The notes below the pieces were generated by a model that saw nothing but the letters and a program-made list of their open reading frames with translations, ran no database searches and was not told the DNA's origin. From Planctomycetota bacterium (GTDB lineage: Bacteria; Planctomycetota; UBA1135; GCA-002686595), in the NCBI GenBank assembly GCA_030746555.1, contig JASLMK010000072.1, positions 12,257 to 44,256 of the forward strand: DNA of 32,000 bases, read 5' to 3'. Shown piece by piece: positions 1,224-32,000 of the stretch (position 1 is the first letter of the stretch; each line of letters begins with the position of its first letter). The position numbers were made by a program, and so were the translations under genes.

Positions 1224-3290
1224 TCAGCGCTCCGCGCGAGCGAACTCCAGAGCAAACCACGCCACGGCGAGCCGGCGGTGGTCGATGGAACCCGCGGTGT
1301 GGTCCGAGGGGGCCTGGTGGTAGGCGGGGATCAGCTCGATGCGGCAGGGCGAGGCTCGGCGCGCGGCGGCGGGGACGACGAGGGAGTAGGTGCCCAGGCC
1401 CTTGCCGAGGCGCACGGAGCCGACCTCGGTCCCGTCCACCACGACCCTCACCACCTGCTCGGGGCGTGAGGGGAACTCGTAGGGCGCCGCGTCGAAGGTC
1501 ATGCGTACGTCGCCGTCTCGAGGGAGCTCAGCCAAAAGCGCCGCGCGCTCCCCGAGGCTCCAGACGAAGCTCACCTTCCCCATGACCTCCGCCGCCGACC
1601 AACCGTGGAGCAGGAAGCGGCGCTCCCGGCCCGAGCCGAAGGCCAGGTGCAGGGGGAGCCCCTCCTCTTCCGCGGGCTCGACGGGGCCGGTGTCCGCAAC
1701 GGAGACCTCCGCCGCGGACGCGCCGCCCCCGGCCGGCGGCCCGGCGGGCTCCCCGAGCAGCTCCAGGAAGAAGGCAGCGAGCGCTTCCCCCACGACCGCA
1801 TTGCCGCGCGCATTGAAGTGCGTGTCGCGCAGGTGGTAGACGTGGCGCCGGCCGTCGGCGAGAGGCTCGACCGCGCGCAGGAGCGGCAGGAGGTCGAGGT
1901 GCGGCAGGTCCCGCGAGCGCAGCCACTCCACAGTCCGCCGCTGGGCGAGGTCGCGGTCGAGGGGCTGCTCGTTCAGCTCCTGGACCGCCTGCCACAACTC
2001 GTCCTCGACCTGGAACTCATCGGGGATCAGGACGAACGCCACCAGGACCTCGCCCGCCGCGGCGAGGATCGCGTCGAGCTCGGCGAAGAAGCGCCCGTGG
2101 AGGCCGCGGTGCGGGATGCAGATGCCCCAGGCGTTGCGGGCCTCGAGCTGGTGGAACAGCTCCTCCCCCATCGTGGGCCGCTCCTTGAGAGGATCCTCCA
2201 GCCAGGGATAGCGGCGGGTGAGCCCGACCCCGGAGGTCTCGACCGCCGCCAGGATGCCCGCCGAGAGCTCCGCCCGCTGCCGGATCCGCAGCCGGTGCCA
2301 GACGATCGGCAGGAGGTAGGCGTCCGCGTCGTGCCAGCGCGCGGGCCCCGCGGGGGAGGGTCCCGCCGCCAGGTCGTTGCCGACGTAGAGCTGAACGACG
2401 ATCAGGTCCGGCTCGTAGTCGAGGGCCTCGCCCGCCAACAGCTCCCGGTAGTCGGCGGGACCGATGCCGGGGAAGCCCATGTTGTAGATCTCCAGCCCGC
2501 TCGCCTCCTCGGCGACGGTCGTGAAGTGGTAGGGGTGCGGGACGACGCCGTAGCTGAACGAGTCGCCGATGCTCACCACCAGGGGACGGCGCGCCCCCGC
2601 GGCCGGGGCGAACTCGTCGTCGTAGTGCCCGGTCATGTTCACCGGGAACTGGAAGCGCACGTTCCCCGGCGCCTGGCGCTCGCTCTGCCGCCGGATCTGG
2701 GAGGGCGTGTCGCGCGTGACCAGGATCGGCGAGGGCCACAGGGCGGCGGTGACGCGCAGGGAGAGCTCCCCGAAGACGAGCAGGACCGTCGCGCACAAGA
2801 GCAGCCCCTCGGTGAGCCCGCGCACGCGCTTCGGCAGGAGCCGCCGCGCCAGGGGCAGGCACCAGATCCACAGGACCCAGGCGAAGTAGGCCGCGGCCAG
2901 TGCCAGATGAGCCGTCACCGGATGCCGGACCCGGAACGGGCCCTTGAAAGACTCGGCGGTGGACAACCAGAACGCCGAGCAGACCAGGAGGACCACGCCG
3001 AGGTAGACGAAGGCGCGCAGGCGCAGGGCGGCGTCGGGCTCCTCGCGCCGGCGCGCCGCGCACCAGACGCTGCGCGCCAGCTCGATCCCCCCGGCGCCCG
3101 CGGCCGCCACCGTGAACGCCCACAGGCCTTGGACCCCGACGCTTCCGATCCCCTTGCGGTCGACGAGGACCTCCAGCAGCACGCGCTGCCCGTCCACGAG
3201 GTCCGCCGCGTCCCAACAGGCCCGCATGCCCAGCCAGTGGAGCACGAGGAGCGCCAGGGGCCCCACCCACTTCACCCCACCACCTCGCAA
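1224..3290 (-). CDS. Membrane-anchored SGNH/GDSL-family hydrolase with an extra C-terminal domain of about 150 aa
   Basis: 688-aa ORF with a TTG start at 3290. The N-terminal ~200 aa contain several hydrophobic helices. SGNH blocks are present: VVSIGDSFSYG (block I Ser), YNMGFPGIG (block II Gly), VQLYVGNDL (block III Asn) and LRDTHFNARGN (block V Asp/His). The C-terminal part (HLAFGSGRERRFLLHGWSAAE...VSFVWSLGERAALL) looks like a beta-sandwich/CBM-type module. Confidence 0.8.
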   Translation of the reverse strand: MRGGGVKWVGPLALLVLHWLGMRACWDAADLVDGQRVLLEVLVDRKGIGSVGVQGLWAFTVAAAGAGGIELARSVWCAARRREEPDAALRLRAFVYLGVVLLVCSAFWLSTAESFKGPFRVRHPVTAHLALAAAYFAWVLWIWCLPLARRLLPKRVRGLTEGLLLCATVLLVFGELSLRVTAALWPSPILVTRDTPSQIRRQSERQAPGNVRFQFPVNMTGHYDDEFAPAAGARRPLVVSIGDSFSYGVVPHPYHFTTVAEEASGLEIYNMGFPGIGPADYRELLAGEALDYEPDLIVVQLYVGNDLAAGPSPAGPARWHDADAYLLPIVWHRLRIRQRAELSAGILAAVETSGVGLTRRYPWLEDPLKERPTMGEELFHQLEARNAWGICIPHRGLHGRFFAELDAILAAAGEVLVAFVLIPDEFQVEDELWQAVQELNEQPLDRDLAQRRTVEWLRSRDLPHLDLLPLLRAVEPLADGRRHVYHLRDTHFNARGNAVVGEALAAFFLELLGEPAGPPAGGGASAAEVSVADTGPVEPAEEEGLPLHLAFGSGRERRFLLHGWSAAEVMGKVSFVWSLGERAALLAELPRDGDVRMTFDAAPYEFPSRPEQVVRVVVDGTEVGSVRLGKGLGTYSLVVPAAARRASPCRIELIPAYHQAPSDHTAGSIDHRRLAVAWFALEFARAER

Positions 3291-3444
3291 GCAAAGCAGC
3301 CGGGTCGGGGGCGCCGAGCGGACGGGCCGGTCGGTACGGCGCGCGTCCCGCCCAGCCGGGCGAGCTCTCGGCCGCCCGCGGTCGGCGTGCGCCTCGAGAG
3401 AAGCTCGGGCGGTCGCCTGGATTCCCCGCTCACCGTGGGCGCCC

Positions 3445-4890
3445 TCAGTCGCCGGTGTAGCCGAGGGCCTCGAGCTGGTCGAGGGTCTCCTGCTTCACGC
3501 CCGTGGCCTGCTGTTGTTCGTGGCCCAGCTTCTCCACGACGTCGTGCCACTCCAGGGCGAACCGGGCCAGCCTCGCCGCCAACTCTGGGAGCTCGACGCT
3601 GAGGTCGGCCTGCTCCCGGGGGTCGGTCCGGTAGGAGAACAGCTCGACACGCCTGGTCTTGCGGCTCGTCAGCATGTGGTGGGTGTCGGTCGCGACGGCG
3701 ATCTGGCGCCCGTAGAAGGGCGACTCGGAGATGGCGACCTGCTCGCTCGCGGGGGCGGAGCCGTCGATCAGCGAGAGTAGGCTGGCCCCGTCGATGTCCT
3801 CCAGCGCGTCGAGCTCGAGGACCTCGAGGATCGTGGGGAGCACGTCGATCGACTCCACCACGGCCTCGACCGAGCCGCCCTCACGCTGGCCGGGGAGCTT
3901 CAGGACCAGGGGGATGCGCGAGACCGGCGTGAAGAGCTTGTCGTGCATGACCCCGCCGTGGTCGAAGAACTCCTCGCCGTGGTCGGACAGGAACACGATC
4001 AGCGCGTCGTCGTAGAGCCCGCGCTCCTTCAGGCCGTCGAGGAACTCCCCCAGCCAGGTGTCCACGTAGCGGATGCCGCCGTCGTAGAGACCTTCGACGT
4101 AGGCGAGCTGCTCCGCGCTCAACCGAGGAGGATCCTCGTCGTGGCGGCCCTCCCAGATGCGCAGCAGCTCCGGGCCGAGGAGCGCCCGGAACTCCGGGCT
4201 CGGCATGGCCTGCGGATCGACGAACATCGACCGGTACGGTTCGGGGGAGCTGTCGTAGGGCGTGTGGACGTCGTAGGTGTGGACGAGGAGGAAGAAGGGA
4301 TCGTCGTCGGCGAGCCGCGTGCCCAGCCACTCCTCGACCCGGGGACCGATCGCCGCGAGGCCCCCGGCCCGGTCATCGTAGACGTCGAACCCGCGCTCGA
4401 GCCCGTAGCCCGACCCCATGTAGCCACCGTCGACGAAGGCCGCGGTGTCGTAGCCGGCCTCGGAGAGCACCTCCGCCAGGGGCACGACGGCGTCGGGCAG
4501 GGCCGCCTTGTCGTCGATGCGGCCGTGGCGCGTGGGGTAGAGGCCCGTGAAGATCGAGGTCTGGGAGGGGACGGTGAACGGAGCCTGGGCGAAGGCCCAG
4601 GCGAAGGCGGTCGCCTCGGCGGCGAAGGCGTCGAAGCGCGGGCTCGTCTCCCGCTCGTAGCCGTAGTGGCCGAGGCGGTCGGCGCGCAGGGTGTCGACGT
4701 CGATGACGATCACCGGGTGGGCGGTGCCGAGCGCGCGGCGGGGCATCCACTCTTCGCGCATCGCGAAGGCGATGAGGGACAGGCCGGCTACACCGACCGC
4801 GACCGCCAGGAGTCCCTGCCGGCTCACGACGCGCCTCCGGCGCTGCCGGGGTGCCGTTGGATGGGCGAAATCGGCATCTCCACCGTCCAT
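3445..4890 (-). CDS. Sulfatase-superfamily (alkaline-phosphatase fold) hydrolase/transferase, N-terminally membrane anchored, lacking the C/S-x-P-x-R formylglycine motif
   Basis: Sulfatase-family blocks: VIVIDVDTLRADRLGHYGY, PFTVPSQTSIFTGLYPTRHG, FFLLVHTYDVHTPY and VFLSDHGEEF. I chose the start at ATG 4890 (MDGGDADF...RRRRVVSRQGLLAVAVGVAGLSLIAFA; Arg cluster plus TM helix) rather than the track start at 5055, whose extra 55 aa are Pro/Ala/Arg-rich. Confidence 0.85.
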   Translation of the reverse strand: MDGGDADFAHPTAPRQRRRRVVSRQGLLAVAVGVAGLSLIAFAMREEWMPRRALGTAHPVIVIDVDTLRADRLGHYGYERETSPRFDAFAAEATAFAWAFAQAPFTVPSQTSIFTGLYPTRHGRIDDKAALPDAVVPLAEVLSEAGYDTAAFVDGGYMGSGYGLERGFDVYDDRAGGLAAIGPRVEEWLGTRLADDDPFFLLVHTYDVHTPYDSSPEPYRSMFVDPQAMPSPEFRALLGPELLRIWEGRHDEDPPRLSAEQLAYVEGLYDGGIRYVDTWLGEFLDGLKERGLYDDALIVFLSDHGEEFFDHGGVMHDKLFTPVSRIPLVLKLPGQREGGSVEAVVESIDVLPTILEVLELDALEDIDGASLLSLIDGSAPASEQVAISESPFYGRQIAVATDTHHMLTSRKTRRVELFSYRTDPREQADLSVELPELAARLARFALEWHDVVEKLGHEQQQATGVKQETLDQLEALGYTGD

Positions 4891-4930
4891 CCTACCCCGC
4901 GGGAGACTCCGGGGAGCGCGCGGGTCGGCC

Positions 4931-5668
4931 TCAGTCCAGCCCGGCCCCCTTGGCGCGGTAGAAGGCGCCCACGTCGGCGCGGCGGGCGGCGGCGAAGAGG
5001 CGGGCGATGCCCCCGCTCCACGTGCGACCGGGCTTGCCGGCGGCCGCGTAGGCACGGGCCATGGCGCGGTCGTGGGCGGCGACCCCGGCGAGGACGTGCT
5101 CGTCGGTGGGATAGCGGCCCTCGGAGAGGACCGAGCCCAAGGGGAGGCGCGGTCGCCTCGGAGGCTCCTCCGCCGCCTCGCCGACGCACAGGCCGAAGAG
5201 CGCGAAGAGGTCGGAGGGCAGCTCCAGCAGGCGGTCGACTTCCTCCAGACGATTCCTCAGGCCCCCGATGAAGCAGACCCCCAACCCGGCGGCCTCGAAC
5301 CCCAGGGCGAGGTTCTGGGCGAACAGGGCGACGTCGATGACCGCCACCAGGAAGGCGTCGAAGTCGGGGCGGAACACGCTCCCGGCGCGCTCCACGACGA
5401 GGCGGTGGCGGCGCTGGTCCGCGCACAGGACGAAGAACGCGCCGGCCTCGCTGACCTGGCGCTGCCCGCCGCAGAGCTCCGCCAGACGCTCGCGCTCCGC
5501 CGAGTCCCGGACCCGGATCACGGAGTAGGCCTGGACGTGGCTCGAGGTCGCCGCGCACTGGGCCGCGGCGACGCAGCGCTCCACCAGACCCTCGTCGACC
5601 TCTCCGCCCGCGAAACGCCGAACGGTCCGGTGCGCCCCCAGCAGCTCGAACAGCTCCGTCTCTTCCAT
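4931..5668 (-). CDS. NADPH-dependent oxidoreductase / oxygen-insensitive nitroreductase (NfsA-like)
   Basis: This is the last 245 codons of the 1161-aa minus-strand track ORF, starting at ATG 5668. Sequence MEETELFELLGAHRTVRRFAGGEVDEGLVERCVAAAQCAATSSHVQAYSVIRV matches the nitroreductase-fold signature (R-R-F, SS..Q). The rest of that ORF is antisense to the next gene and is rejected. Confidence 0.85.
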   Translation of the reverse strand: MEETELFELLGAHRTVRRFAGGEVDEGLVERCVAAAQCAATSSHVQAYSVIRVRDSAERERLAELCGGQRQVSEAGAFFVLCADQRRHRLVVERAGSVFRPDFDAFLVAVIDVALFAQNLALGFEAAGLGVCFIGGLRNRLEEVDRLLELPSDLFALFGLCVGEAAEEPPRRPRLPLGSVLSEGRYPTDEHVLAGVAAHDRAMARAYAAAGKPGRTWSGGIARLFAAARRADVGAFYRAKGAGLD

Positions 5669-5758: not shown

Positions 5759-8455
5759 ATGGGCGACGCCATCCTCGACATGCGGAACACTCCCCAGGCG
5801 GCGGCGCTGATGGGCGGCAAGGGGTCCAGCCTGTACGAGCTGGCCCGCGGCGGGCAGCCGGTGCCGGCGTGGTTCTGCGTCAGCGCGCGGGTCTGCGCGG
5901 AGCGCCTCGCCCCTCTCGCCGAGCGCGCCGGCGCCCTCCTCGCTCGCCTCGATCCCGCGCGACCCCAAGGGGTGCGCACCGCGAGCGCGGAGCTCCTGGA
6001 GACCTCGGCGGCCCTGCCCCTGGCCGGGGAGGACCGGCGGGCGATCGAGGAGGCCCTCGGCGACCTGGATGGCGAGCGCTTCGCCGTGCGCTCCTCCGCC
6101 GTCGGGGAGGACGGGAGCGCCGACTCCTTCGCCGGGCAGCTCGAGACCTACCTCCACGTGCGCCGCGAGGATGTGGTCGAGCGCGTCACCGACTGCCAGG
6201 CCTCGGCCTTCACCGCGCGCGCCCTCGCCTACGGGAGGGAGCGCGGCCGCACGCCCGGTCCCGTGGCCGTCGTCGTCCAGGAGATGGTCGCCAGCCGCTC
6301 CGCCGGGGTCCTGTTCACGGCCAACCCCGCCGGGAGCCTCGACGAGCTGGTCGTCGTGGCCGCCTGGGGCCTGGGGGAAGGGGTGGTCGGCGACCTGGTC
6401 GAGTCGGACACCTACATCTACGACCGTCTCACCCGGGCCTGGTCCCGCTCCGTCGGCTCCAAGCGTTCTCGCGTGGTGCTCGACGAGGAAACGGGCACGG
6501 GCACCTGCGTGCGTCCCCTGCCCGAGTCCCTGAGGGAGGGGCCGGTCCTCGACGACGACCAGCTCGAGGCCCTGCGCACCGCGGCCGAGGCGATCGAGGC
6601 CCTCTGCGGCCCCGGCCAGGACGTCGAGTGGGCCTTCGACGAGCGGGGTCGGCTCGCGATCACCCAGAGCAGGCCGATCACGACCCTGCCGCGGGGCGAG
6701 CTGTCGATCTTCGACGCGAGCAACATCGTCGAGAGCTACCCGGGGATCACCTCGCCCCTGACCTTCTCCTACATCCTCGCCGCCTACGCGCGCGTCTTCC
6801 GCGACATGGCCCGCCGCCTGGGCGTGCCTCGCCGCGAGCTCGAGCACAACGACGACCTGTTCGAGAGCATGCTCGGGCACCTCGACGGGCGCGTGTACTA
6901 CAACCTCGGGAGCTGGTACCGCCTGTTCCTGCTGGTCCCCTTCACCGGCTCCTACCTCGGCGTCTGGGAGGAGATGCTCGGGATCCGCAACCCGCGGCCC
7001 GCCTCGGCCCGCGCGCGGCGCAGCGCCGTCTTGCGCGACCTGCCCCGGGCGGCCCGGGCGGCGGGGAGCTTCACCTGGAACCTGCTGCGCCTCACGCCCC
7101 GCATGGAGCGGCTGCGGCGGCGCTTCGCGGGGATCGAGCGGCGCTTTCGCCGCACCGACCTCGACGAGCTCGACACCGTCGCCCTCGCCCGCCTCTACCG
7201 CTCCCTCTCCCTGGAGCTGATGGACGGCTGGGACCTCACCCTGCTCAACGACGCCTACGCGATCATCGGCTCGGGCCTCGTGCGCGCCCAGCTCGAGCGT
7301 GCCGGGGCGGAGGCCGACGCCTTCGGGGCCCTGATGGCGGGCGAGGAGGACCTCGAGAGCGCCCGGCCCGCCCACAGCCTCGCACTCCTCGCGGACGCGG
7401 CCCGCGGGGACGAGGCGCTGCTCGAGGCGCTCGCCGCGGCGGCAGAGGCCGAGGACGCCGCCGTCGCCCGAGCCTTCCCCGACCATCCCGACTTCGCCCG
7501 CCGCTTCGAGGAGCACCTCGAGCGCTGGGGCGACCGCCACCTCGCCGAGCTGAAGCTCGAGTCCCCCAGCCTGCGCCGCCACCCGCGCCTGTTGGCCGGC
7601 CTCATCCTGCGCCAGGCGCGCGGCGGCCACGACGCGGCCCAGGCGGCGGCCCACCGCAAGCGCCTGCGGGAACGAGCCCGCGCCGAGTGCGCCCGGGCCT
7701 TCGCCGGCGCCCCCCACCGCCGGGCGCTCTTCGCCGTCGCCCTCCGCCTCGCCCGGCGCTCGGTGCGCTACCGCGAGAGCTCGCGCATGGACCGGGCGCG
7801 GGGCTTCGGCATGATGCGCGAGGTGTTTTGGGCCATGGCCGAGCGCCTCGTCGCCGAGGGCGCCCTCGAGGCCGCCGACGACGTGTTCCTGTTGACCGTC
7901 GACGAGCTCCTGGGCTTCGCCACCGGTAGCGGGGTCGACGCCGAGCTGCGCGCCATCGTGGAGCGCCGGCGGGCCGAGGCCGCGGCCCGCCCCGACGGTG
8001 GCCCGGCGCGCGAGCGCCTGCGCTTCCGCGGCACGGTGGGCGCACACCCCTCCGCGACCGGCGTTGCCTCCCGCACACAGCCTGCCGACGCTCCCGCCCC
8101 GGGCGACGCCGGCACGCTCGAGGGCACGGGCTGCTCCGCGGGCACGGTCACGGCCGAGGCGGTCGTCGTGCGCGATCCCTCCCAGGCCGCCGACACGGCC
8201 GGCAAGGTGCTCGTGGCGGAGATGACCGATCCCGGCTGGGTGTTCCTGATGATGTCCGCGGCGGGGCTGGTCGTCGAGCGCGGCAGCCTGCTCTCCCACA
8301 CCGCCATCATCGGCCGCGAGCTGGGGGTGCCGACCGTGGTCGGCGTGCCCGGCGCCTGCTCGCTCATCGGCGACGGCGACCGCGTCGAGCTCGACGGGCG
8401 CAGCGGCAGGGTGCACGTGTTCGCCCGCGCCCGCGACGAGGAGGCCGAGGGATGA
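5759..8455 (+). CDS. PEP-utilizing three-domain kinase (PpsA/PPDK N-terminal ATP-grasp + helical middle domain + C-terminal phospho-His swivel domain), rifampin-phosphotransferase-like architecture (copy 1)
   Basis: Starts at ATG 5759 (MGDAILDMRNTPQAAALMGGKGSSLYEL). ATP-grasp blocks: FAVRSSAVGEDGSADSFAGQLETYL, VAVVVQEMVASRSAGVLFTANP, WGLGEGVVGDLVESD and DVEWAFDERGRLAITQSRPIT. C-terminal mobile domain: GKVLVAEMTDPGWVFLMMSAAGLVVERGSLLSHTAIIGRELGVPTVVG (catalytic His in LSHTAI). An alternative start lies at 5780. Confidence 0.85.
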   Translation: MGDAILDMRNTPQAAALMGGKGSSLYELARGGQPVPAWFCVSARVCAERLAPLAERAGALLARLDPARPQGVRTASAELLETSAALPLAGEDRRAIEEALGDLDGERFAVRSSAVGEDGSADSFAGQLETYLHVRREDVVERVTDCQASAFTARALAYGRERGRTPGPVAVVVQEMVASRSAGVLFTANPAGSLDELVVVAAWGLGEGVVGDLVESDTYIYDRLTRAWSRSVGSKRSRVVLDEETGTGTCVRPLPESLREGPVLDDDQLEALRTAAEAIEALCGPGQDVEWAFDERGRLAITQSRPITTLPRGELSIFDASNIVESYPGITSPLTFSYILAAYARVFRDMARRLGVPRRELEHNDDLFESMLGHLDGRVYYNLGSWYRLFLLVPFTGSYLGVWEEMLGIRNPRPASARARRSAVLRDLPRAARAAGSFTWNLLRLTPRMERLRRRFAGIERRFRRTDLDELDTVALARLYRSLSLELMDGWDLTLLNDAYAIIGSGLVRAQLERAGAEADAFGALMAGEEDLESARPAHSLALLADAARGDEALLEALAAAAEAEDAAVARAFPDHPDFARRFEEHLERWGDRHLAELKLESPSLRRHPRLLAGLILRQARGGHDAAQAAAHRKRLRERARAECARAFAGAPHRRALFAVALRLARRSVRYRESSRMDRARGFGMMREVFWAMAERLVAEGALEAADDVFLLTVDELLGFATGSGVDAELRAIVERRRAEAAARPDGGPARERLRFRGTVGAHPSATGVASRTQPADAPAPGDAGTLEGTGCSAGTVTAEAVVVRDPSQAADTAGKVLVAEMTDPGWVFLMMSAAGLVVERGSLLSHTAIIGRELGVPTVVGVPGACSLIGDGDRVELDGRSGRVHVFARARDEEAEG

Positions 8456-9396
8456 GCCGCCTGCGCGGGATCGCGGCCTTCCTGTGGGAGATGTGCCCTC
8501 CCCACCTGCTGCTGCCCCTGGGCGTGGCCCGCTTCTGCGCCGTCTACCTGGGCCTGCAAGCCCTGGCGGGATCGGACGCCCTCGTCCTCGGGCCGCGCGC
8601 GGTCACCGGCACCGCCAGCCTGATCCTGTTCGTCGTCCTCGCCCGGGTCTACGACGAGTTGAAGGACGCGGACACCGACCGCCGCCTGGCCGCCACCGGC
8701 GATCCGCGCACGGCCTCGCGCCCCATCGTGCGCGGCATCGTCGACGAGGCCGACCTGCGCGCGCTGCGCAACGTCCTGATCGTCGCCCTGATCGCCCTCC
8801 AGCTCCCCGGCGCCGCCCCCCTGCCCCTGGCCGGGTTCGCCCTCGCCCTGGCCGCGTTCTGGCTCTCGTCGAACTGGTTCTTCTGGCCGGCGGTCGAGCG
8901 CCACCTCCTGCTGGCGCTGCTGACGACCAGTCCGCTCACCCTCTTCGTGCTGGCCTACGTCGCGACCCTCTTCGCCGCCGACTTCGGCGCCGGGCGTCTG
9001 GGCGCCTCGACGGCCCTGCTCCTGTTCGGCCTCTACGCGCCCATGCTCGCCTGGGAGACCTCGCGCAAGGTCCGCGTCCCCGCCGACGAGACCGACTACG
9101 AGACCTACACCAAGACCCTCGGGCCGCGCCGGGCGCTCGCTCTGCCGATCACCTTCGCCCTGGTGACCGTCGCGCTCCTCGCCTCCTTCGCAGTCCGCGT
9201 CGGCCTGCCCGCACCCTTCTTCTGGGCCCTGGGGAGCGCCGGCGCCCTGTTCGTCGGCGCGTGCCTGGCCTTCGTGATCGCCCCCAGCCGCCGCCGCGCC
9301 CACCTCGAGCCCTTCGCCCAGGTCTTCCTGCTCGTCGCCGACTTCGGCCTGGCGATCGGTCTGGCCTGCGCCTTCTCCGTGACCTGGGCGGCCTGA
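8452..9396 (+). CDS. UbiA-family integral-membrane prenyltransferase
   Basis: 314 aa, polytopic and hydrophobic. The first Asp-rich motif and following loop, YDELKDADTDRRLAATGDPRTASRPIVRGIV, compare with UbiA NDxxDxxxD...RTxNRPLxSG. A second acidic region reads WETSRKVRVPADETDYETYTKTLG. The ATG overlaps the upstream stop (ATGA at 8452-8455). Confidence 0.8.
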   Translation: MSRLRGIAAFLWEMCPPHLLLPLGVARFCAVYLGLQALAGSDALVLGPRAVTGTASLILFVVLARVYDELKDADTDRRLAATGDPRTASRPIVRGIVDEADLRALRNVLIVALIALQLPGAAPLPLAGFALALAAFWLSSNWFFWPAVERHLLLALLTTSPLTLFVLAYVATLFAADFGAGRLGASTALLLFGLYAPMLAWETSRKVRVPADETDYETYTKTLGPRRALALPITFALVTVALLASFAVRVGLPAPFFWALGSAGALFVGACLAFVIAPSRRRAHLEPFAQVFLLVADFGLAIGLACAFSVTWAA

Positions 9397-9401
9397 GGGC
9401 G

Positions 9402-10526
9402 ATGAGCGAGGCCGTCCGCGACGCCGCGTTCTTCGACCACGTGGGCTACTCCACGGTCTGGGAGGACGAGCGCTGCATCGACGAGGGCCTGCGACCCGCT
9501 CCCGGCGAGCGCGTGCTCTCGATCACGTCCGGCGGAGACTTCAGCCTGCAGTTCCTGCTCGCCGACGTGGCCTCGGTCCTGTCGGTCGACTTCAACCCGC
9601 GCCAGGACTTCCTGCTGCAGCTGAAGGTCGCCGCCCTCGCCGAGCTGTCCCACGACGAGCTGTGGGGCTTCTGCGGGCTGGAGAGCTGCGGAGAGCGCGG
9701 TGGCCTCTACGCGCGCCTGCGGCCGCGGCTGGCCGCCGGGCCCCGCGAGTACTGGGACCGCCGCGAGCGCGCGATCCGGCGCGGGTTCCTCTTCGACGGC
9801 AAGCAGGACCGCTTCCTCCACCGGGCCGGTTCGCTGGTCACCGCCGCCCTCGGCCGGCGTGCGGTCGAGCGCTACTTCACGAGCACCACCCTCGCCGAGC
9901 AGCGCGCCGCCATCGGGCCGGGGCTGCGCGGCTGGCGCTGGCGCGCCCTGGCCCGGGTCCTGTTCAGCCGCGCGGTCTTCAACCGCGCCTTCGACCGCGC
10001 CCACTTCCGCTACGCGACGCGCGAGCACCACCCGGCGACGCTCCTGCGCGAGCAGGTCGAGGGCGTCTTCCTCGACCTCCCCGCGGTCGAGAACTACCCC
10101 TACCACTGGGCCTTCCGCCGGGGCTTCCGCGACCGCGAGCACTGCCCCGCCTGGCTGCGGGCGTCGGCCCACCCCACCCTGCGCGACCGCCTCGGGCGGC
10201 TCACCTCGACCGTGGGCGACCTGGCGGAGGTCCTCGAGGAGCTCCCCGAAGACTCCGTGGACTGCTTCCACTTCTCCAACGCCTTCGACTGGGTCAGCCT
10301 GGCGCAGTTCGTGGTCCTGATGAGCGAGGTCGTGCGCGTCGCCCGTCCGGGGGCGCGCCTGTGCTACTGGACGAACCTGTTCAACACGCACCGCGAGCTC
10401 GACCTCGCCATCGGGGCGTTGGGCGGGATCCGGGAGGAGCGCGACCTCGCGGACGGGATCCACCGCGCCTCCCGCACCCCCGGCTACTCCTCCTGCACGC
10501 TGGGGACGATCACGAAGGAGTGGTAG
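9402..10526 (+). CDS. DUF3419 / BtaA-like S-adenosylmethionine 3-amino-3-carboxypropyl transferase
   Basis: Starts at ATG 9402, 5 nt after the UbiA stop. YSTVWEDERCIDEGL, VLSITSGGDFSLQFLL, VLSVDFNPRQDFLLQLK and DCFHFSNAFDWV match my recollection of the BtaA/DUF3419 pattern (Y.q.WED, SaGcN.L, DlNpaQ..LleLK, lSn..dW). Confidence 0.8.
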   Translation: MSEAVRDAAFFDHVGYSTVWEDERCIDEGLRPAPGERVLSITSGGDFSLQFLLADVASVLSVDFNPRQDFLLQLKVAALAELSHDELWGFCGLESCGERGGLYARLRPRLAAGPREYWDRRERAIRRGFLFDGKQDRFLHRAGSLVTAALGRRAVERYFTSTTLAEQRAAIGPGLRGWRWRALARVLFSRAVFNRAFDRAHFRYATREHHPATLLREQVEGVFLDLPAVENYPYHWAFRRGFRDREHCPAWLRASAHPTLRDRLGRLTSTVGDLAEVLEELPEDSVDCFHFSNAFDWVSLAQFVVLMSEVVRVARPGARLCYWTNLFNTHRELDLAIGALGGIREERDLADGIHRASRTPGYSSCTLGTITKEW

Positions 10527-10531
10527 AGCGA

Positions 10532-11446
10532 TTGGACGGACGGACCGAGAGCACCTTCGTCGACCGCGAGAGCGGCGAGCCGTGCACCGAGCACGTCCAC
10601 CGCGGCGGGTTCTTCCGCTGGCTGTACGGTTCGCGCGCCGGACGCGCGCTGCGGGGTTGGCTGACCGGCTCGCGGCTCCTCCACCGCGCCCTCGCCCGCT
10701 TCGCCGACTCGCCGGCCTCGCGGGTGTGCATCCGCCGCTTCAGCGTGCTCGCCGGCGTGGACACCGACGAGGCCCTCGAGCCCGAAGGGGGCTATCGCAG
10801 CTTCAACGACTTCTTCGGCCGCCGCCTGCGTCCGTCCTGCCGCCCCCTCGATCCCGACCCCCAAGCGCTCCTCTCCCCCGGCGACGGCAAGCTGTTCGTC
10901 GCGGGCGACCTGGGCAGCGAGGCGCGCCTCTCGATCAAGGGCTGCTCGTTCACCGCGGCCGAGCTCCTCGCCAAAGCGGCGGACGCGGCACCCTACGCGG
11001 GAGGCAGCGCCGCCGTCCTGCGCTTGTACCTCCCCGACTACCACCGCGTCCACTTCCCCGCCGACGGCGTCCTCGATCCTCCCCGGGAGGTCCTCGGCCG
11101 CTACCTGTCGGTGACCCCGTTTCCCGGCAACGACGAGCCCTTCTACTTCCGAAACCACCGCGTCGTGAGCGTGCTCCGAAGCGACCGCTTCGGGCGCATC
11201 GCCATGGTCGAGGTCGGGGGCTTTCTGATCTCCAGCGTGCGCCCCCTGTGCGCCGCAAGACAGCGCGTGCGCCGCGGCGACGAGAAGAGCCTGTTCGCCT
11301 TCGGCGGCTCCACCCTCGTGCTGTTGGCCGAGCCCGGCCGCGTGGTCTTCGATGCCGACCTCCTCGAGCACTCCGCCCGCGGCCTGGAGACCCGCGTGCG
11401 CCTGGGGACGCGCATCGCCCGCGCGGGGCGCGCCGGCTCAGCCTAG
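10532..11446 (+). CDS. Phosphatidylserine-decarboxylase-family (pyruvoyl-dependent) decarboxylase proenzyme
   Basis: PSD-family blocks: FNDFFGRRLRP, LLSPGDGKL, VLRLYLPDYHRVHFPADG, MVEVGGFLISSV and the self-cleavage-type FAFGGSTLVLL (G-S-T). No ATG is available. The TTG at 10532 lies 11 nt after GAAGGAG (10514-10520). An alternative GTG at 10520 overlaps the upstream gene. Confidence 0.8.
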   Translation: MDGRTESTFVDRESGEPCTEHVHRGGFFRWLYGSRAGRALRGWLTGSRLLHRALARFADSPASRVCIRRFSVLAGVDTDEALEPEGGYRSFNDFFGRRLRPSCRPLDPDPQALLSPGDGKLFVAGDLGSEARLSIKGCSFTAAELLAKAADAAPYAGGSAAVLRLYLPDYHRVHFPADGVLDPPREVLGRYLSVTPFPGNDEPFYFRNHRVVSVLRSDRFGRIAMVEVGGFLISSVRPLCAARQRVRRGDEKSLFAFGGSTLVLLAEPGRVVFDADLLEHSARGLETRVRLGTRIARAGRAGSA

Positions 11447-28683: not shown

Positions 28684-28757
28684 GCCCCGCTCCCGCCGCA
28701 GAGGCTCCGCCCGCACCGGGCCGGCCGCGGTCGCAGGGCGCGGGAGACCTCCCCCAG

Positions 28758-30209
28758 ATGACGGCTGAACGACTGCAGAATCACATCGACGGCGCGTGGA
28801 CCGATTCCGATGCCGCCGAGGTCTACGAAGTGACCAATCCCGCCAGCGGCGAGGTCATCGGCCTGACGCCCCTGTGCGGAGCCGAGGAGGTCGACGCCGC
28901 CGTGCGTTCCGCCGCGCGCGCCTACCCCGCCTGGCGCCGCACGCCGATCCAGGAGCGCATCCAACCCCTCTTCCGCCTGAAGGCGCTGCTCGAGGAGCAC
29001 GCGGAAGAGCTGGCCGCCGTCGTCACGCGCGAGAACGGCAAGACGCTGCCGGAGGCGCGCGGGAGCGTGCGGCGTGGGATCCAGATGATCGAGGCCGCCT
29101 GCGGCGCGCCCTCCTTGATGATGGGCCAGGCCCTGGAGGACATCGCCGCCGGCATCGACTGCGAGAGCGTGCGCCAGCCGCTCGGCGTCTTCGCCTGCAT
29201 CGCACCCTTCAACTTCCCCGCCATGGTGCCGATGTGGTTCTTCCCCTTCGCCGTGGCCTGCGGGAACACGTTCGTCTGCAAGCCCTCCGAGCAGGTCCCC
29301 TTCAGCCAGAAGCTCGTCTGGCGCCTGATCGACGAGGCCGGTTTCCCGCCGGGCGTGTTGAACCTCGTGCACGGCGGGCGCGAGGCCGTAGACACCCTGA
29401 TCGAACACCCCCTGGTGCGCGGCGTCTCGTTCGTCGGCTCCAGCCCCGTGGCCGAGCACGTCTACAAGACCGCGGCGGCCCACGGCAAGCGCGTCCAGGC
29501 CCTCGGCGGCGCCAAGAACTTCGTCATCGTCATGCCCGACGCGGACATGGACGCGACCGTGGCCTCGATCACCGACTCCGCCTTCGGCTGCGCCGGCGAG
29601 CGCTGCCTGGCTGCCAGCATCGTCGTGTGTGTCGGCGACAGCCACGCCGAGGTGCGCGCGGGCCTGGTGCGCGCCATGGGCGAGATCGAGGTCGGCGACG
29701 GGACGCGTGAGGGAGTGACCCTGGGCCCGCTGATCTCCGCGGCACACAAGCGCAAGGTCGAGGAGCGCATCGCCGCCGGCGTCGAGGAGGGCGCCGAGCT
29801 GGTGCTCGACGGCCGCGGCGTGAAGGTCGACGGCTCCGAGGGCGGCTTCTTCCTCGGTCCGACCCTGTTCGACGGCGTCTCCCCGACCATGAGCATCGGC
29901 ACCGAGGAGGTCTTCGGGCCGGTGCTGTGCCTGATGCGGGCCGAGACCATCGAGGACGCCCTCGAGCTCGCCCGCAACCAGCCGCTGGCCAACGCCAGCT
30001 CGATCTTCACCACCAGCGGGAGGCACGCGCGCACCTTCCGCTACGAGATCGAGGCCAGCATGGCCGGCGTCAACATCGGCGTCGCCGCCCCCATGTCCTT
30101 CTTCGGCTTCGGCGGCGCGAAGGGCTCGTTCTTCGGAGACCTCAAGGCCCACGGGCGCGAGGCCTTCGACTTCTTCACCGACCGCAAGGTCGTCATCTCC
30201 CGCTGGTAG
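28758..30209 (+). CDS. mmsA: CoA-acylating methylmalonate-semialdehyde / malonate-semialdehyde dehydrogenase
   Basis: Starts at ATG 28758, with GGGAGA 10 nt upstream. ALDH-family blocks: CIAPFNFPAMVPMWFFPFAVACGNTFVCKPSE, FVGSSPVAEHVY, GGAKNF, AFGCAGERCLA (catalytic Cys, MMSDH-type GERC) and EEVFGPVL. The C-terminal FFGDLKAHGREAFDFFTDRKVV is typical of MmsA. Confidence 0.9.
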   Translation: MTAERLQNHIDGAWTDSDAAEVYEVTNPASGEVIGLTPLCGAEEVDAAVRSAARAYPAWRRTPIQERIQPLFRLKALLEEHAEELAAVVTRENGKTLPEARGSVRRGIQMIEAACGAPSLMMGQALEDIAAGIDCESVRQPLGVFACIAPFNFPAMVPMWFFPFAVACGNTFVCKPSEQVPFSQKLVWRLIDEAGFPPGVLNLVHGGREAVDTLIEHPLVRGVSFVGSSPVAEHVYKTAAAHGKRVQALGGAKNFVIVMPDADMDATVASITDSAFGCAGERCLAASIVVCVGDSHAEVRAGLVRAMGEIEVGDGTREGVTLGPLISAAHKRKVEERIAAGVEEGAELVLDGRGVKVDGSEGGFFLGPTLFDGVSPTMSIGTEEVFGPVLCLMRAETIEDALELARNQPLANASSIFTTSGRHARTFRYEIEASMAGVNIGVAAPMSFFGFGGAKGSFFGDLKAHGREAFDFFTDRKVVISRW

Positions 30210-30227
30210 AGAGAGGATCCCCAAAGC

Positions 30228-31100
30228 GTGGCAAGAATCGTCAAGGGCGGACTGATCCAGTGCGCCAACCCCAAGAACGACGAGACGCTCCCGGTGGCGG
30301 AGATCCAGGCGGCTGCGCTCTCCAAGCACCTCCCGCTGATCGAGGAGGCCGGGGCGGCCGGCGTGCAGATCCTCTGCCTGCAAGAGATCTTCAACGGCCC
30401 CTACTTCTGTCCCGGCCAGGACGCCCGCTGGTACGACGCCGCGGAGCCGATCCCAGGGCCGACCACCGAGGCCCTCGCACCGCTGGCGGCCAAGCACCAG
30501 ATGGTGCTCGTCGTGCCGCTCTACGAGCGCGAGCAGGCCGGCGTCTACTACAACAGCGCCGCGGTCATCGACGCCGACGGCACCTACCTCGGCAAGTACC
30601 GCAAGAACCACATCCCCCACACCTCGGGGTTCTGGGAGAAGTTCTTCTTCAAGCCGGGGAACCTCGGCTATCCGGTCTTCGAGACGGCCTACGCCAAGGT
30701 CGGGGTGTACATCTGCTATGACCGTCACTTCCCCGAGGGGGCGCGGCTGTTGGGCCTGAACGGCGCCGAGATCGTCTTCAATCCCTCCGCCACGGTCGCG
30801 GGCCTCTCCCAGTACCTGTGGAAGCTCGAGCAGCCCGCCCACGCCGTCGCCAACGGCTACTTCATGGGCTGCATCAACCGGGTCGGGACCGAGGCGCCCT
30901 GGAACCTCGGGAAGTTCTACGGCACCAGCTACTTCGTCGATCCGCGCGGGAGCTTCTTGGCCGAAGGCTCCGAGGACGACGACGAGCTGGTCTGCGCCGA
31001 GATGGACCTGGAGCTGATCGAGGAAGTGCGGCGCGTGTGGCAGTTCTACCGCGACCGACGCCCGGAGACCTACGAGGACATGGTCGGCCTGCTGCCCTGA
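30228..31100 (+). CDS. Beta-ureidopropionase (N-carbamoyl-beta-alanine amidohydrolase), nitrilase superfamily
   Basis: GTG start at 30228. Nitrilase E-K-C triad contexts: ILCLQEIFNGPYFC, GKYRKNHIPH and VYICYDRHFPE. High by-eye similarity to animal/bacterial beta-ureidopropionases (WEKFFFKPGNLGYPVF, QPAHAVANGYF). Confidence 0.9.
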   Translation: MARIVKGGLIQCANPKNDETLPVAEIQAAALSKHLPLIEEAGAAGVQILCLQEIFNGPYFCPGQDARWYDAAEPIPGPTTEALAPLAAKHQMVLVVPLYEREQAGVYYNSAAVIDADGTYLGKYRKNHIPHTSGFWEKFFFKPGNLGYPVFETAYAKVGVYICYDRHFPEGARLLGLNGAEIVFNPSATVAGLSQYLWKLEQPAHAVANGYFMGCINRVGTEAPWNLGKFYGTSYFVDPRGSFLAEGSEDDDELVCAEMDLELIEEVRRVWQFYRDRRPETYEDMVGLLP

Positions 31101-31108
31101 GGAGAGCG

Positions 31109-32000
31109 ATGGCGAAGACACTCATCCAAGGCGGAACGGTCGTGACGGCGACCGAGGTCTTCCGCGGCGACGTGCTGGTCGACGGCGAGCGGGTCGAGGC
31201 GGTCGGCTGCGACCTCTCAGGCGAGGTGGACCGCACGATCGACGCCACCGACCGACTGGTGATCCCCGGCGGCATCGACGTGCACACGCACCTCGACATG
31301 CCGTTCGGCGGCGCCTTCTCGGTGGACGACTTCGAGACCGGGACCATCGCGGCGGCCCACGGCGGCACGACGACGGTGGTCGACTTCGCCATCCAGGAGC
31401 GCGGCAAGACCCTGCGCCACGCCTGGGAGAGTTGGATGGCCAAGGCCGAGGGCAAGGCGGCCATCGACTACGGCTTCCACATGATCCTGTCCGAGCACAC
31501 GCGCGAGCTCGAGCGCGAGATGGGCGACATGGTCGAGGAGGGCGTGACCTCCTTCAAGCTGTTCATGGCTTACCCCGGCGTCTTCTACATGGACGACGGC
31601 GGCATCTTCCGCTGCATGCAGCGCTCCGGCGAGATCGGGGCGACCATCTGCATGCACGCGGAGAACGGCATCGTGATCGACGTCCTGGTGGAGCAGGCCC
31701 TCGCTCGCGGGGAGACCGAGCCGCGCTACCACGCCCTCACGCGCCCGCCGCGCGCCGAGGCGGAGGCCACCCACCGTGCGATCGCCCTGGCCGAGATGGC
31801 GGACGTCCCCGTCTACATCGTGCACCTCTCCGCCGCCGAGGCCCTGGCGGAGGTGACCGCCGCCCGCGCCCGCGGTCTGGCGGCCTTCGCCGAGACCTGT
31901 CCCCAGTACCTGTTCCTCTCCTACGACAACTACGAGGAGCCGGACTTCGAGGGCGCCAAGTACGTCATGAGCCCGCCCCTGCGGGACAAGGCCAAGCAGG
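31109..32000 (+). CDS. hydA: Dihydropyrimidinase / D-hydantoinase (N-terminal ~297 codons; continues beyond the window)
   Basis: ATG 31109 with GGAGAG 2 nt upstream. MAKTLIQGGTVVTA, VIPGGIDVHTHLDMPFGG (HxH metal site), SFKLFMAYPG (carboxylated Lys), CMHAENG and VYIVHLS. The frame has no stop before base 32000, which probably explains why this ORF is missing from the track. Confidence 0.9.
   Translation, partial: MAKTLIQGGTVVTATEVFRGDVLVDGERVEAVGCDLSGEVDRTIDATDRLVIPGGIDVHTHLDMPFGGAFSVDDFETGTIAAAHGGTTTVVDFAIQERGKTLRHAWESWMAKAEGKAAIDYGFHMILSEHTRELEREMGDMVEEGVTSFKLFMAYPGVFYMDDGGIFRCMQRSGEIGATICMHAENGIVIDVLVEQALARGETEPRYHALTRPPRAEAEATHRAIALAEMADVPVYIVHLSAAEALAEVTAARARGLAAFAETCPQYLFLSYDNYEEPDFEGAKYVMSPPLRDKAKQ

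Follow-up and report, generated by a model that had tools for sequence, protein, structure and literature searches.

A 32,000-nucleotide (nt) stretch of a Planctomycetota genome (contig JASLMK010000072.1 of assembly GCA_030746555.1), hereafter called the window, carries a gene for a protein of the DUF3419/BtaA family, directly followed by a gene for a protein of the phosphatidylserine decarboxylase (PSD) family. With a G+C content of 73%, the window abounds in long spurious open reading frames (ORFs), and its gene set was therefore called by analysis of the third-position GC content (GC3) of each frame. Families were assigned to the encoded proteins by Pfam and NCBIfam profile scans. Two convergent operons, one per strand, make up the region around the pair. 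The plus-strand operon contains, in this order, the genes for a phosphotransferase (PEPut1), a UbiA-like protein, the DUF3419/BtaA-like protein and the PSD-family protein, and the minus-strand operon those for an aminotransferase fusion of 1017 amino acids (aa), a second phosphotransferase (PEPut2) and a GNAT-like protein of 366 aa. A preliminary description of this DNA had reported the BtaA-like and PSD-family genes, and both were found where it placed them, with their family assignments confirmed. It had treated them as a two- or three-gene unit; the pair is real, but it belongs to a conserved cluster of about seven genes that the description left out.

The DUF3419 protein matched Pfam PF11899 with an E-value of 5.6e-55 (187.5 bits for a cut-off of 28.2) over positions 4-332 of the 385 in the profile. 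Its putative motif I for the binding of S-adenosylmethionine (SAM), ITSGGD, is encoded at 9522-9539 (aa 41-46) and aligns with the IGSGG/ITSAG of genuine BtaA, and the motifs that the alignment revealed as common to both proteins are WED, ITSGG, D-x-N-P-x-Q, a D/N-x-F-D/E-W region and RPGAR. A plasmid collection yielded genuine btaA genes of Rhizobium leguminosarum, Sinorhizobium meliloti and Chondrinema litorale, and in all three btaB, encoding a class-I methyltransferase, lies directly 3'. The window protein is 22-31% identical to BtaA from such btaA-btaB loci. At a locus labelled Sinorhizobium meliloti Ak57 plasmid pSymB (L024; CP090106.1, 2459036-2466021), the btaA frame is broken by a frameshift and the downstream btaB is intact; despite its label, this record has the size of a chromosome (3.72 Mb). 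In the AlphaFold2 (AF2) model of the window protein (pLDDT 90.9), the sheet is Rossmann-like and split, and about 200 residues form a helical insertion. The Foldseek matches of the model were weak and mostly to class-I SAM methyltransferases, also to spermidine synthases (E about 3e-4, TM at most 0.25), and a sequence search of the PDB returned no DUF3419 structure. Among 1.84 billion representative proteins, 1977 relatives were found at E ≤ 1e-3, only about ten of them with at least 40% identity; a DUF3419 protein in the Planctomycetota metagenome-assembled genome (MAG) ARS15 is 85% identical. Judged from these searches, the group of the window protein is a small clade inside a moderately large family.

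The absence of a methyltransferase from the cluster, as given in the preliminary description, was borne out. No Pfam methyltransferase family was matched among the GC3-supported genes of the window, where the lone signal of this kind was a sub-threshold Methyltransf_11 match inside the DUF3419 protein itself, and in a tblastn search with three BtaB proteins from genuine btaA-btaB loci, neither the window nor the related loci L001-L028 yielded a match at E < 0.3. Neither orthology to BtaA combined with btaB synteny nor a btaB gene was thus found, and the DUF3419 protein is best regarded as a distant paralogue of BtaA. The earlier analogy with BtaA holds as far as the common family; as the identity is low and the clade a different one, the acceptor need not be diacylglycerol.

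The second protein of the pair matched Pfam PF02666 with an E-value of 3.3e-42 (144.9 bits for a cut-off of 22). Two start codons are candidates, GTG at 10520 (308 aa) and TTG at 10532 (304 aa); the latter is more likely, because a length of 304 aa is that of the database protein P0052, which is 100% identical over 99% of the query, and because AAGGAG is present at 10514-10519. The hallmarks of the family named in the preliminary description are exact: DYHRVHFP is encoded at 11036-11059 and the self-cleavage motif GGST at 11303-11314. In the PDB, the protein matched E. coli PSD (7cnw, E 7e-23) and, much more distantly, the tryptophan decarboxylase PsiD (E 3e-6). For comparison with other members of the family, 124 homologues were aligned and placed in a neighbour-joining (NJ) tree, 31 of which form a clade linked to DUF3419 and 93 of which are other PSDs. 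Residues D122, H175 and G263-S264-T265 align with D90, H144 and S254 of E. coli PSD and are invariant in all 124. At the N-terminus, the alignment extends over the region by which the E. coli enzyme binds membranes, which fits a lipid substrate. The protein missed the NCBIfam equivalog cut-offs for PSD, both in its best model, PRK00723 (234 versus 371 bits), and in TIGR00163 (93 versus 111.75). No gene for a phosphatidylserine synthase (PssA) was found in the window or in the annotated related loci.

Related loci came from homologue look-ups and from scans of the GTDB species representatives (9 loci) and of JGI metagenomes (12 loci); both scans used an alignment of eight sequences, and the loci were annotated by tblastn with the window proteins. 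At least 12 distinct loci have the DUF3419 and PSD genes next to each other, with either gene first or with the two convergent. These include the lineage of the window (L007/L011), Planctomycetota OFTM393 (L008), L010, L014/L015, L016, L029 and L035-L038, and the cultured Anaeromyxobacter oryzae (L020); in L019 the two genes are at most four genes apart. The carriers are Planctomycetota, Myxococcota, Riflebacteria (Rifleibacteriota), a MAG labelled NC10 and MAGs labelled 'Deltaproteobacteria'. Loci L014 and L015, labelled Ca. Methylomirabilis and Rifleibacteriota, share about 85% DNA identity and were counted as one lineage. In two other MAGs the partners are not adjacent: in one, a PSD of the same clade (L021) lies 50 kb from the PEPut2 and DUF3419 genes (L001) on the same contig, and in the other (L005) it lies on a second contig (L030), beside PEPut1 and GNAT genes. 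In L021 (Planctomycetes JACPWG010000064.1), an ORF of 1146 aa without a Pfam match (1801-5241) ends 13 nt before the PSD gene of the cluster clade. In L010, a small AdoMet_dc gene, of the SAM decarboxylase type of pyruvoyl enzyme, is found at 2313-2666, 7 kb upstream of a stand-alone DUF3419-PSD pair; accompanied by DUF4178 and DUF350 genes, it is probably unrelated to the pair, although it bears on the question of decarboxylated SAM raised below.

In the PSD tree, all proteins with a known DUF3419 context fell into one clade (about 31 sequences), with the exception of the divergent PSD of L019, and a PSD from a member of the Planctomycetota without the cluster (P0071, locus L022) grouped among ordinary PSDs. 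In an NJ tree of DUF3419 proteins, those linked to a PSD were monophyletic, a sister clade had UbiA, PEPut and HMG-CoA reductase neighbours and no PSD, and BtaA proteins accompanied by BtaB formed the outgroup. Since both partners form dedicated clades and are recurrently adjacent across phyla, these comparisons indicate that the pairing is not due to chance and that the partners co-evolve. The earlier observation that the BtaA-like gene has a PSD-family decarboxylase for a partner, in place of BtaB, therefore describes a conserved and specific arrangement. A supposed link between a PEMT-DUF3419 fusion (P0045) and a PSD (P0095) was dropped, as the contig of P0045 (L023) has no PSD gene.

The linked PSDs also differ from the others at defined positions. 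None of the 31 linked proteins has Pro at the residue equivalent to E. coli P140, versus 83 of the 93 others, and at that equivalent to S139, Tyr or His was present in all 31 versus none of the 93. All 31 have Ser or Thr at the N168 position, where the others have mostly Asn or His, and Cys, Val or Gly replaces the Tyr of D-Y-H-R (E. coli Y143) in 20 of the 31, Tyr being kept in 90 of the 93 others. The latter replacement marks an Anaeromyxobacter-like subclade of the cluster PSDs (P0060-P0078, L010, L016). In E. coli PSD, Tyr137, Ser166 and Val167 touch the phosphate of phosphatidylethanolamine (PE) (PMC7952604). The clade-specific substitutions flank these contacts and adjoin the catalytic His, and the window protein keeps Ser197-Val198, the equivalent of Ser166-Val167. 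The substitutions are compatible with a remodelled head-group pocket, without being proof of one. The presence of Arg at the Tyr137 position of the window protein was also considered as a sign of a non-phospholipid substrate, but was dropped since Arg is found in 70 of the 93 non-cluster PSDs as well.

The other genes of the two operons are listed with the pair in the table below.

Genes of the two convergent operons around the DUF3419-PSD pair (positions are those of the window)
Predicted product	Position	Strand	Basis and remarks
PEPut1, Rph/PigC-like ATP-dependent phosphotransferase	5759..8455	+	Pfam PPDK_N and PEP-utilizers; opens the plus-strand operon
UbiA-like integral-membrane prenyltransferase	8452..9396	+	Pfam UbiA (sub-cut-off), NCBIfam PRK13592
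DUF3419/BtaA-family SAM-dependent transferase, putative 3-amino-3-carboxypropyl (acp) transferase, 374 aa	9402..10526	+	PF11899
PSD-family pyruvoyl decarboxylase proenzyme	10520 or 10532..11446	+	PF02666
Tandem-GNAT N-acyl(acetyl)transferase, 366 aa	11438..12538	-	Acetyltransf_1 (marginal) and Foldseek; closes the minus-strand operon
PEPut2, Rph/PigC/TamQ-like ATP-dependent phosphotransferase, 897 aa	12538..15231	-	Pfam PPDK_N and PEP-utilizers
TamH-like aminotransferase and acyl-ACP/thioester reductase, 1017 aa	15215..18268	-	Pfam Aminotran_3 and structural-database matches

Both operons are tightly packed. The ATG at 5759 is the earliest in-frame start of PEPut1, the stop codon of which overlaps the UbiA start in ATGA; 5 nt separate the UbiA and DUF3419 genes, and the DUF3419 stop codon (TAG, 10524-10526) either overlaps the GTG of the PSD gene or precedes its TTG by 5 nt. 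On the minus strand, the end of PEPut2 and the start of the GNAT gene overlap in TGATG, an arrangement of translational coupling, and the GNAT gene is convergent with the PSD gene. Two further groups of genes were noted in the window. Genes for AlgX/SGNH-like, sulfatase-family and NfsA-like nitroreductase proteins (1224-5650, minus strand) lie upstream of the cluster and divergent from it; this gene order is kept only in the close relative L007/L011, so that these genes may or may not be linked to the cluster. At 28716-32000 on the plus strand, genes for a CoA-acylating methylmalonate-semialdehyde dehydrogenase (above the NCBIfam cut-off), a carbon-nitrogen hydrolase resembling N-carbamoylputrescine amidase and a truncated dihydropyrimidinase resemble an operon for reductive pyrimidine or beta-amino-acid catabolism, and are unrelated to the pair.

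Across the related loci, the recurrent set comprises UbiA-like, PEPut1, PEPut2, DUF3419, PSD and GNAT-like genes, often with an MMPL or Patched-type transporter gene alongside (L005, L008, L020, L029, L038). Both PEPut paralogues combine a PPDK_N ATP-grasp domain with a C-terminal phosphohistidine swivel domain, and the His motif SH(A/T)A(V/I)I is present in their translations. PEPut1 (PPDK_N E 2.7e-62, PEP-utilizers E 5.1e-22) scored 654 bits with PRK06241.2-2 and 258-292 bits with RedH, Rph and PigC; PEPut2 (E 8.7e-70 and 7e-22, respectively) scored 344, 332 and 305 bits with Rph, RedH and PigC. All of these scores are under the equivalog cut-offs. Orthologues of PEPut1 were present in L007, L008, L014/15, L019, L020, L025, L026, L029, L030 and L038, and in L001 the PEPut2 gene overlaps the DUF3419 gene by 4 nt. 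The UbiA-like protein reached 27.7 bits in Pfam, below the gathering cut-off of 34.2, and matched NCBIfam PRK13592 (E 4e-23) far under the equivalog cut-off. It has a first Asp-rich motif, DELKDAD, at aa 68 and a possible second one (DETDYETY...TLG) discerned by eye only; a PDB sequence search gave nothing useful for it. Its orthologues lie beside DUF3419 or PEPut genes in L005, L014/15, L020, L025, L026, L029, where the match to UbiA is weak, L038 and L040.

The GNAT-like protein, for which the Pfam match to Acetyltransf_1 is marginal, was modelled by AF2 as a tandem GNAT (pLDDT 91.4). The best Foldseek matches of this model were the tandem GNAT 2wpw of the clavulanate pathway (E 1e-13), the glucosamine N-acetyltransferase 5kgh, the mycothiol synthase MshD and N-myristoyltransferases, and on the basis of this fold and these matches the protein is predicted to be an acyl-CoA-dependent N-acyltransferase of an amine. 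The window protein is 100% identical to the database protein QF903_15520 (Planctomycetota bacterium), and orthologous genes were found in L007, L019, L020, L023, L025, L026, L029, L034, L038 and L041. In L014/L015, PEPut2 and the GNAT protein form a single ORF of 1244-1245 aa (L014 14291-18025; L015 13479-17216). This fusion, together with the coupling in the window, suggests that the N-acyltransferase and the phosphotransferase act on the same intermediate; one may speculate that an amide is formed and then O-phosphorylated or condensed.

The 1017-aa protein starts with a class-III aminotransferase domain (Aminotran_3, E 2.3e-58). Its C-terminal 461 aa matched the cyanobacterial acyl-ACP reductase 6jzq and PigE 4ppm (E about 3e-15), the catalytic Cys of the reductase domain being aligned (ACVSES versus ACFAEA), and the whole protein missed the PigE equivalog cut-off (315 versus 850). 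This TamH-like enzyme is predicted to convert fatty acyl-ACP to an aldehyde and then to a fatty amine. It has orthologues in L005, L007, L008, L014/15 and L033, the L008 gene adjoining genes for a fatty acyl-AMP ligase (FAAL) and an acyl carrier protein. No TamH-like gene was found in the Myxococcota-type clusters L029 and L038, within the sequence seen. The idea that a fatty amine is the universal acceptor of the acp group, yielding an N-alkyl-1,3-diaminopropane, was therefore downgraded, as both of these clusters have the pair.

DUF3419 proteins have varied company. In L038, PEPut2 and DUF3419 apparently form one ORF, and among family representatives DUF3419 is fused to PEPut, HMG-CoA reductase, GNAT, MFS or PEMT/ICMT domains (P0317, P0325, P0238/P0292/P0319, P0243, P0253). 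Given this diversity of fusion partners, most of the family seems to be active in uncharacterised pathways other than the synthesis of the betaine lipid diacylglyceryltrimethylhomoserine (DGTS). A DAGK-type lipid kinase is linked with DUF3419 in L023. Two sister clusters have no PSD. That of Roseinatronobacter sp. S2 (L025; plasmid NZ_CP121116.1) contains UbiA, PEPut, DUF3419, a membrane protein of 439 aa, a GNAT-like protein and an AMP-binding enzyme; that of Brevibacillus laterosporus B9 (L026; NZ_CP011076.1, 459505-478569) contains HMG-CoA reductase, UbiA, PEPut and DUF3419, and continues with the 439-aa membrane protein, GNAT, an OleC-like AMP-binding enzyme (PRK09274) and a cytochrome P450. 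The 439-aa polytopic protein had no Pfam or NCBIfam match, and a motif resembling those of dolichol/phytol kinases, KS-x-EGS-x-AFF, was seen by eye.

Some loci carry further genes of lipid metabolism next to the cluster. A complete OleA/OleB/OleC/OleD-like set, consisting of PRK09258 KAS III-like, haloalkane-dehalogenase-like hydrolase, olefin beta-lactone synthetase-like and 2-alkyl-3-oxoalkanoate reductase-like genes, lies directly upstream on the same strand in L014 (265-4961) and L015 (1-3209). It was rejected as independent support, as these two loci represent one lineage. In A. oryzae (L020, 5253-6773 of AP025591.1), a gene for a wax-ester synthase/diacylglycerol acyltransferase (TIGR02946, above the cut-off) is directly upstream of the pair, a hint that the Myxococcota version operates in the context of neutral lipids or fatty alcohols.

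From these data we propose, with about even confidence, that the pair is a dedicated, co-evolving two-enzyme module of a conserved membrane-lipid cluster, in which acp transfer and decarboxylation would result in net aminopropylation. The most likely outcome would be a lipid that carries a 3-aminopropyl group, added by a route for which no lipid example has been described. In a first step, as suggested by its family, the DUF3419 protein would move the acp group of SAM onto a hydroxyl, phosphate or amine of an intermediate. This intermediate would be membrane-bound and a product of the UbiA-like prenyltransferase and the Rph/PigC-like phosphotransferases encoded nearby. The PSD proenzyme, after self-cleavage at G263-S264 to generate the pyruvoyl group, would then decarboxylate the new alpha-amino-acid head group to a 3-aminopropyl group, and the net reaction would be an aminopropylation without decarboxylated SAM. 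A PSD homologue suits this task, since the acp adduct corresponds to a serine head group with one additional methylene and since the PSD family adopts other amino acids. From its fold and the gene fusions, the tandem GNAT may subsequently N-acylate or N-acetylate the amine, and the MMPL/RND-type transporter of related clusters probably exports the product. In the versions of Planctomycetota, including the window, and of Riflebacteria, the TamH-like enzyme would add a supply of fatty amine, which, to speculate by analogy with tambjamine synthesis, a TamQ-like phosphotransferase may couple to the product.

The linkage of DUF3419 to UbiA, HMG-CoA reductase and phosphotransferases, including the DAGK-type kinase of L023, points to a prenylated and/or phosphorylated intermediate as the acceptor, rather than plain diacylglycerol. 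If the acceptor were a phosphate monoester, the head group would become a phospho-propanolamine, and a PSD-like pocket with its Ser-Val contacts could fit it, although this is speculation. The acceptor is probably neither simply diacylglycerol nor universally a fatty amine. A more comprehensive and clearly more doubtful proposal, which we regard as possible, is that the cluster makes undescribed amine-bearing membrane lipids: the acp group would be placed on a prenyl-bearing or phosphorylated intermediate and decarboxylated in situ by the PSD homologue to an aminopropyl (propanolamine-type) head group. N-acylation of this head group, or its coupling with a fatty amine, would follow, and the MMPL protein would export the product. 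This would represent a route to a PE-like or polyamine-like lipid, independent of CDP and of decarboxylated SAM, in Planctomycetota, Myxococcota, Riflebacteria and NC10.

Several observations weigh against the proposed module. Identity of the window protein to BtaA, so far the sole DUF3419 enzyme to be characterised, does not exceed 31%. Whereas gene identities, intact catalytic residues, operon structure, synteny, co-phylogeny and fusions are observed, the chemistry of this DUF3419 clade and of its PSD clade is predicted from their families, and the roles given to UbiA and to the two phosphotransferases are guesses. The divergence of the cluster PSD is moderate, with 48% identity to the non-cluster protein P0071, and with its conserved Ser197-Val198 it could still act on a phosphoserine-type head group. 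Both trees were built by simple NJ, and their branches carry no support values. In the Planctomycetota-like subclade of P0005/P0010, DUF3419 genes are mostly without an adjoining PSD gene (L001, L032-L034, L039, L040), L032-L034, L039 and L040 being short contigs, and the 'Deltaproteobacteria' locus L003 has DUF3419 alone. In addition, inspection of the ten longest fusion candidates revealed no DUF3419-PSD fusion.

Alternatively, an ordinary PSD could supply PE or a similar lipid and the DUF3419 protein could modify that lipid or an unrelated one, the product of one enzyme not being the substrate of the other. The PSD hallmarks, the Ser-Val pair in contact with phosphate and the membrane-binding N-terminus are indeed all kept, and the 48% identity to a non-cluster Planctomycetota PSD fits this explanation. 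We consider it unlikely, however, as no phosphatidylserine synthase accompanies the pair in the window or the annotated related loci, the linked PSDs form a clade of their own with Tyr or His by the catalytic His, a feature of 0 of the 93 other PSDs, and the score is under the PSD equivalog cut-off (234 versus 371). The pathway could also be that of an ordinary betaine lipid, with btaA making diacylglyceryl-homoserine, btaB located elsewhere in the genome and the PSD gene a chance housekeeping neighbour. Automatic annotations of homologues do read 'S-adenosylmethionine-diacylglycerol 3-amino-3-carboxypropyl transferase', but genuine btaA genes of Rhizobium, Sinorhizobium and Chondrinema directly precede btaB and form the outgroup, the adjacency to PSD recurs across phyla with co-phylogeny, and no BtaB homologue was found in the loci searched (the window and L001-L028). 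A chance neighbour of a normal btaA is thus strongly disfavoured, and this pathway appears very improbable.

Doubt may also be cast on the first reaction. The DUF3419 clade may consist not of acp transferases but of methyltransferases or SAM-binding proteins, with the decarboxylase acting on another amino-acid-bearing intermediate. Low identity to BtaA (22-31%), the lack of a solved structure, weak fold matches that are mostly methyltransferases and the sub-threshold Methyltransf_11 match are in line with this view. Nevertheless, none of the family-wide motifs in common with genuine BtaA has been lost, an alpha-amino-acid decarboxylase needs an amino-acid group that no other core gene of the cluster would provide, and linkage or fusion of DUF3419 to the tandem GNAT, an enzyme in need of an amine, extends to PSD-less clades; we therefore find this view improbable. 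The order of the two reactions is not readable from the sequence, and the PSD-like enzyme could instead decarboxylate SAM, after which the DUF3419 protein would transfer the aminopropyl group as spermidine synthase does, giving the same product. The same ambiguity is acknowledged for the MccD and MccE enzymes of microcin C (PMC10491745), spermidine synthases are among the weak Foldseek top matches of the DUF3419 model, and pyruvoyl decarboxylase families are known to switch substrate (PMC10407285). The sister DUF3419 clades without a PSD partner (L025, L026) argue that SAM itself is the donor in this family, however, and at its N-terminus the PSD retains a stretch alignable with the one by which E. 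coli PSD binds membranes. Moreover, known SAM decarboxylases belong to other pyruvoyl families. A reversed order therefore seems quite improbable, and we retain acp transfer followed by decarboxylation as the proposed sequence.

If this proposal is correct, decarboxylation would join methylation to DGTS as what we count as a 'third fate' of the homoserine-type lipid head group made by the BtaA family. It would be the first aminopropylation at the level of a lipid by acp transfer and decarboxylation, and the PSD family would gain a new physiological substrate, so that a whole clade of proteins annotated as 'phosphatidylserine decarboxylase' would then probably be mis-named. It would further suggest that little-studied phyla have an envelope lipid not known so far. 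The protein families are already known, and the product stands a realistic chance of being a new class of lipid. The full Myxococcota version of the cluster is present in a cultured and fully sequenced organism, A. oryzae (at about 326-338 kb of AP025591.1), and the cultured carriers of PSD-less sister clusters, B. laterosporus and Roseinatronobacter sp. S2, offer a natural comparison with and without the decarboxylase. No description of the DUF3419/BtaA-PSD pair or of the cluster was found in the literature searched.

The closest known counterpart of the first enzyme is BtaA of the BtaA/BtaB pathway to DGTS in Rhodobacter and Sinorhizobium. Both proteins belong to PF11899 with its family motifs and presumably perform the same SAM-dependent transfer of acp to a membrane lipid. 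However, the window protein belongs to a separate clade and its partner is a pyruvoyl decarboxylase instead of the N-methyltransferase BtaB, so that the head group would lose its carboxylate rather than gain three methyl groups; the UbiA, the two PEPut, the tandem GNAT and the TamH-like proteins have no counterpart in btaAB loci. With E. coli Psd (7cnw/6l06), the second enzyme shares the family, the self-cleaving G-S-T, the Asp, His and Ser residues and the membrane-binding N-terminal region. In contrast, its clade has no Pro in (S/A/C)-P-x-D-Y-H-R, with Tyr or His at the preceding residue, no PssA gene accompanies it in the window or the annotated related loci, and its predicted substrate is one methylene longer, with a homoserine-type rather than a serine-type head group.

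That the PSD family can adopt alpha-amino acids other than phosphatidylserine is illustrated by PsiD of the psilocybin pathway and other non-lipid decarboxylases, including the fungal arginine decarboxylase covered by a review. PsiD is, however, a very distant tryptophan decarboxylase (E 3e-6), whereas the window protein keeps a membrane-binding-like N-terminal region. The two PEPut proteins, of the PigC/TamQ/RedH/Rph family, and the TamH architecture recall the tambjamine (TamA/TamH/TamQ) and prodigiosin (PigE/PigC) pathways: PtTamH has the same domain order as the 1017-aa protein (PMC9594044), TamH and TamA turn fatty acids into fatty amines (PMC9594044, PMC6667630), and the FAAL and acyl carrier protein of L008 are equivalent to TamA. 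Unlike these pathways, the cluster has no bipyrrole (MBC) genes, its proteins score under the equivalog cut-offs, and the TamH-like gene is missing from the sequence seen of the Myxococcota version. The two-step logic itself has a precedent in microcin C, so far the only system in which it is known, where MccD transfers acp from SAM and MccE decarboxylates it to install an aminopropyl group (PMC10491745). Net aminopropylation, as put forward in the preliminary description, is thus reasonable as chemistry, the PSD family being able to decarboxylate other alpha-amino acids, but not unprecedented in its logic. The likeness to MccD and the N-terminal domain of MccE is one of reaction logic only, acp transfer and then decarboxylation leading to 3-aminopropyl. 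In microcin C, this group is carried on the phosphate oxygen of a peptidyl-nucleotide and not on a lipid, and the enzyme families differ, since MccD is not a DUF3419 protein and MccE depends on pyridoxal phosphate instead of a pyruvoyl group.

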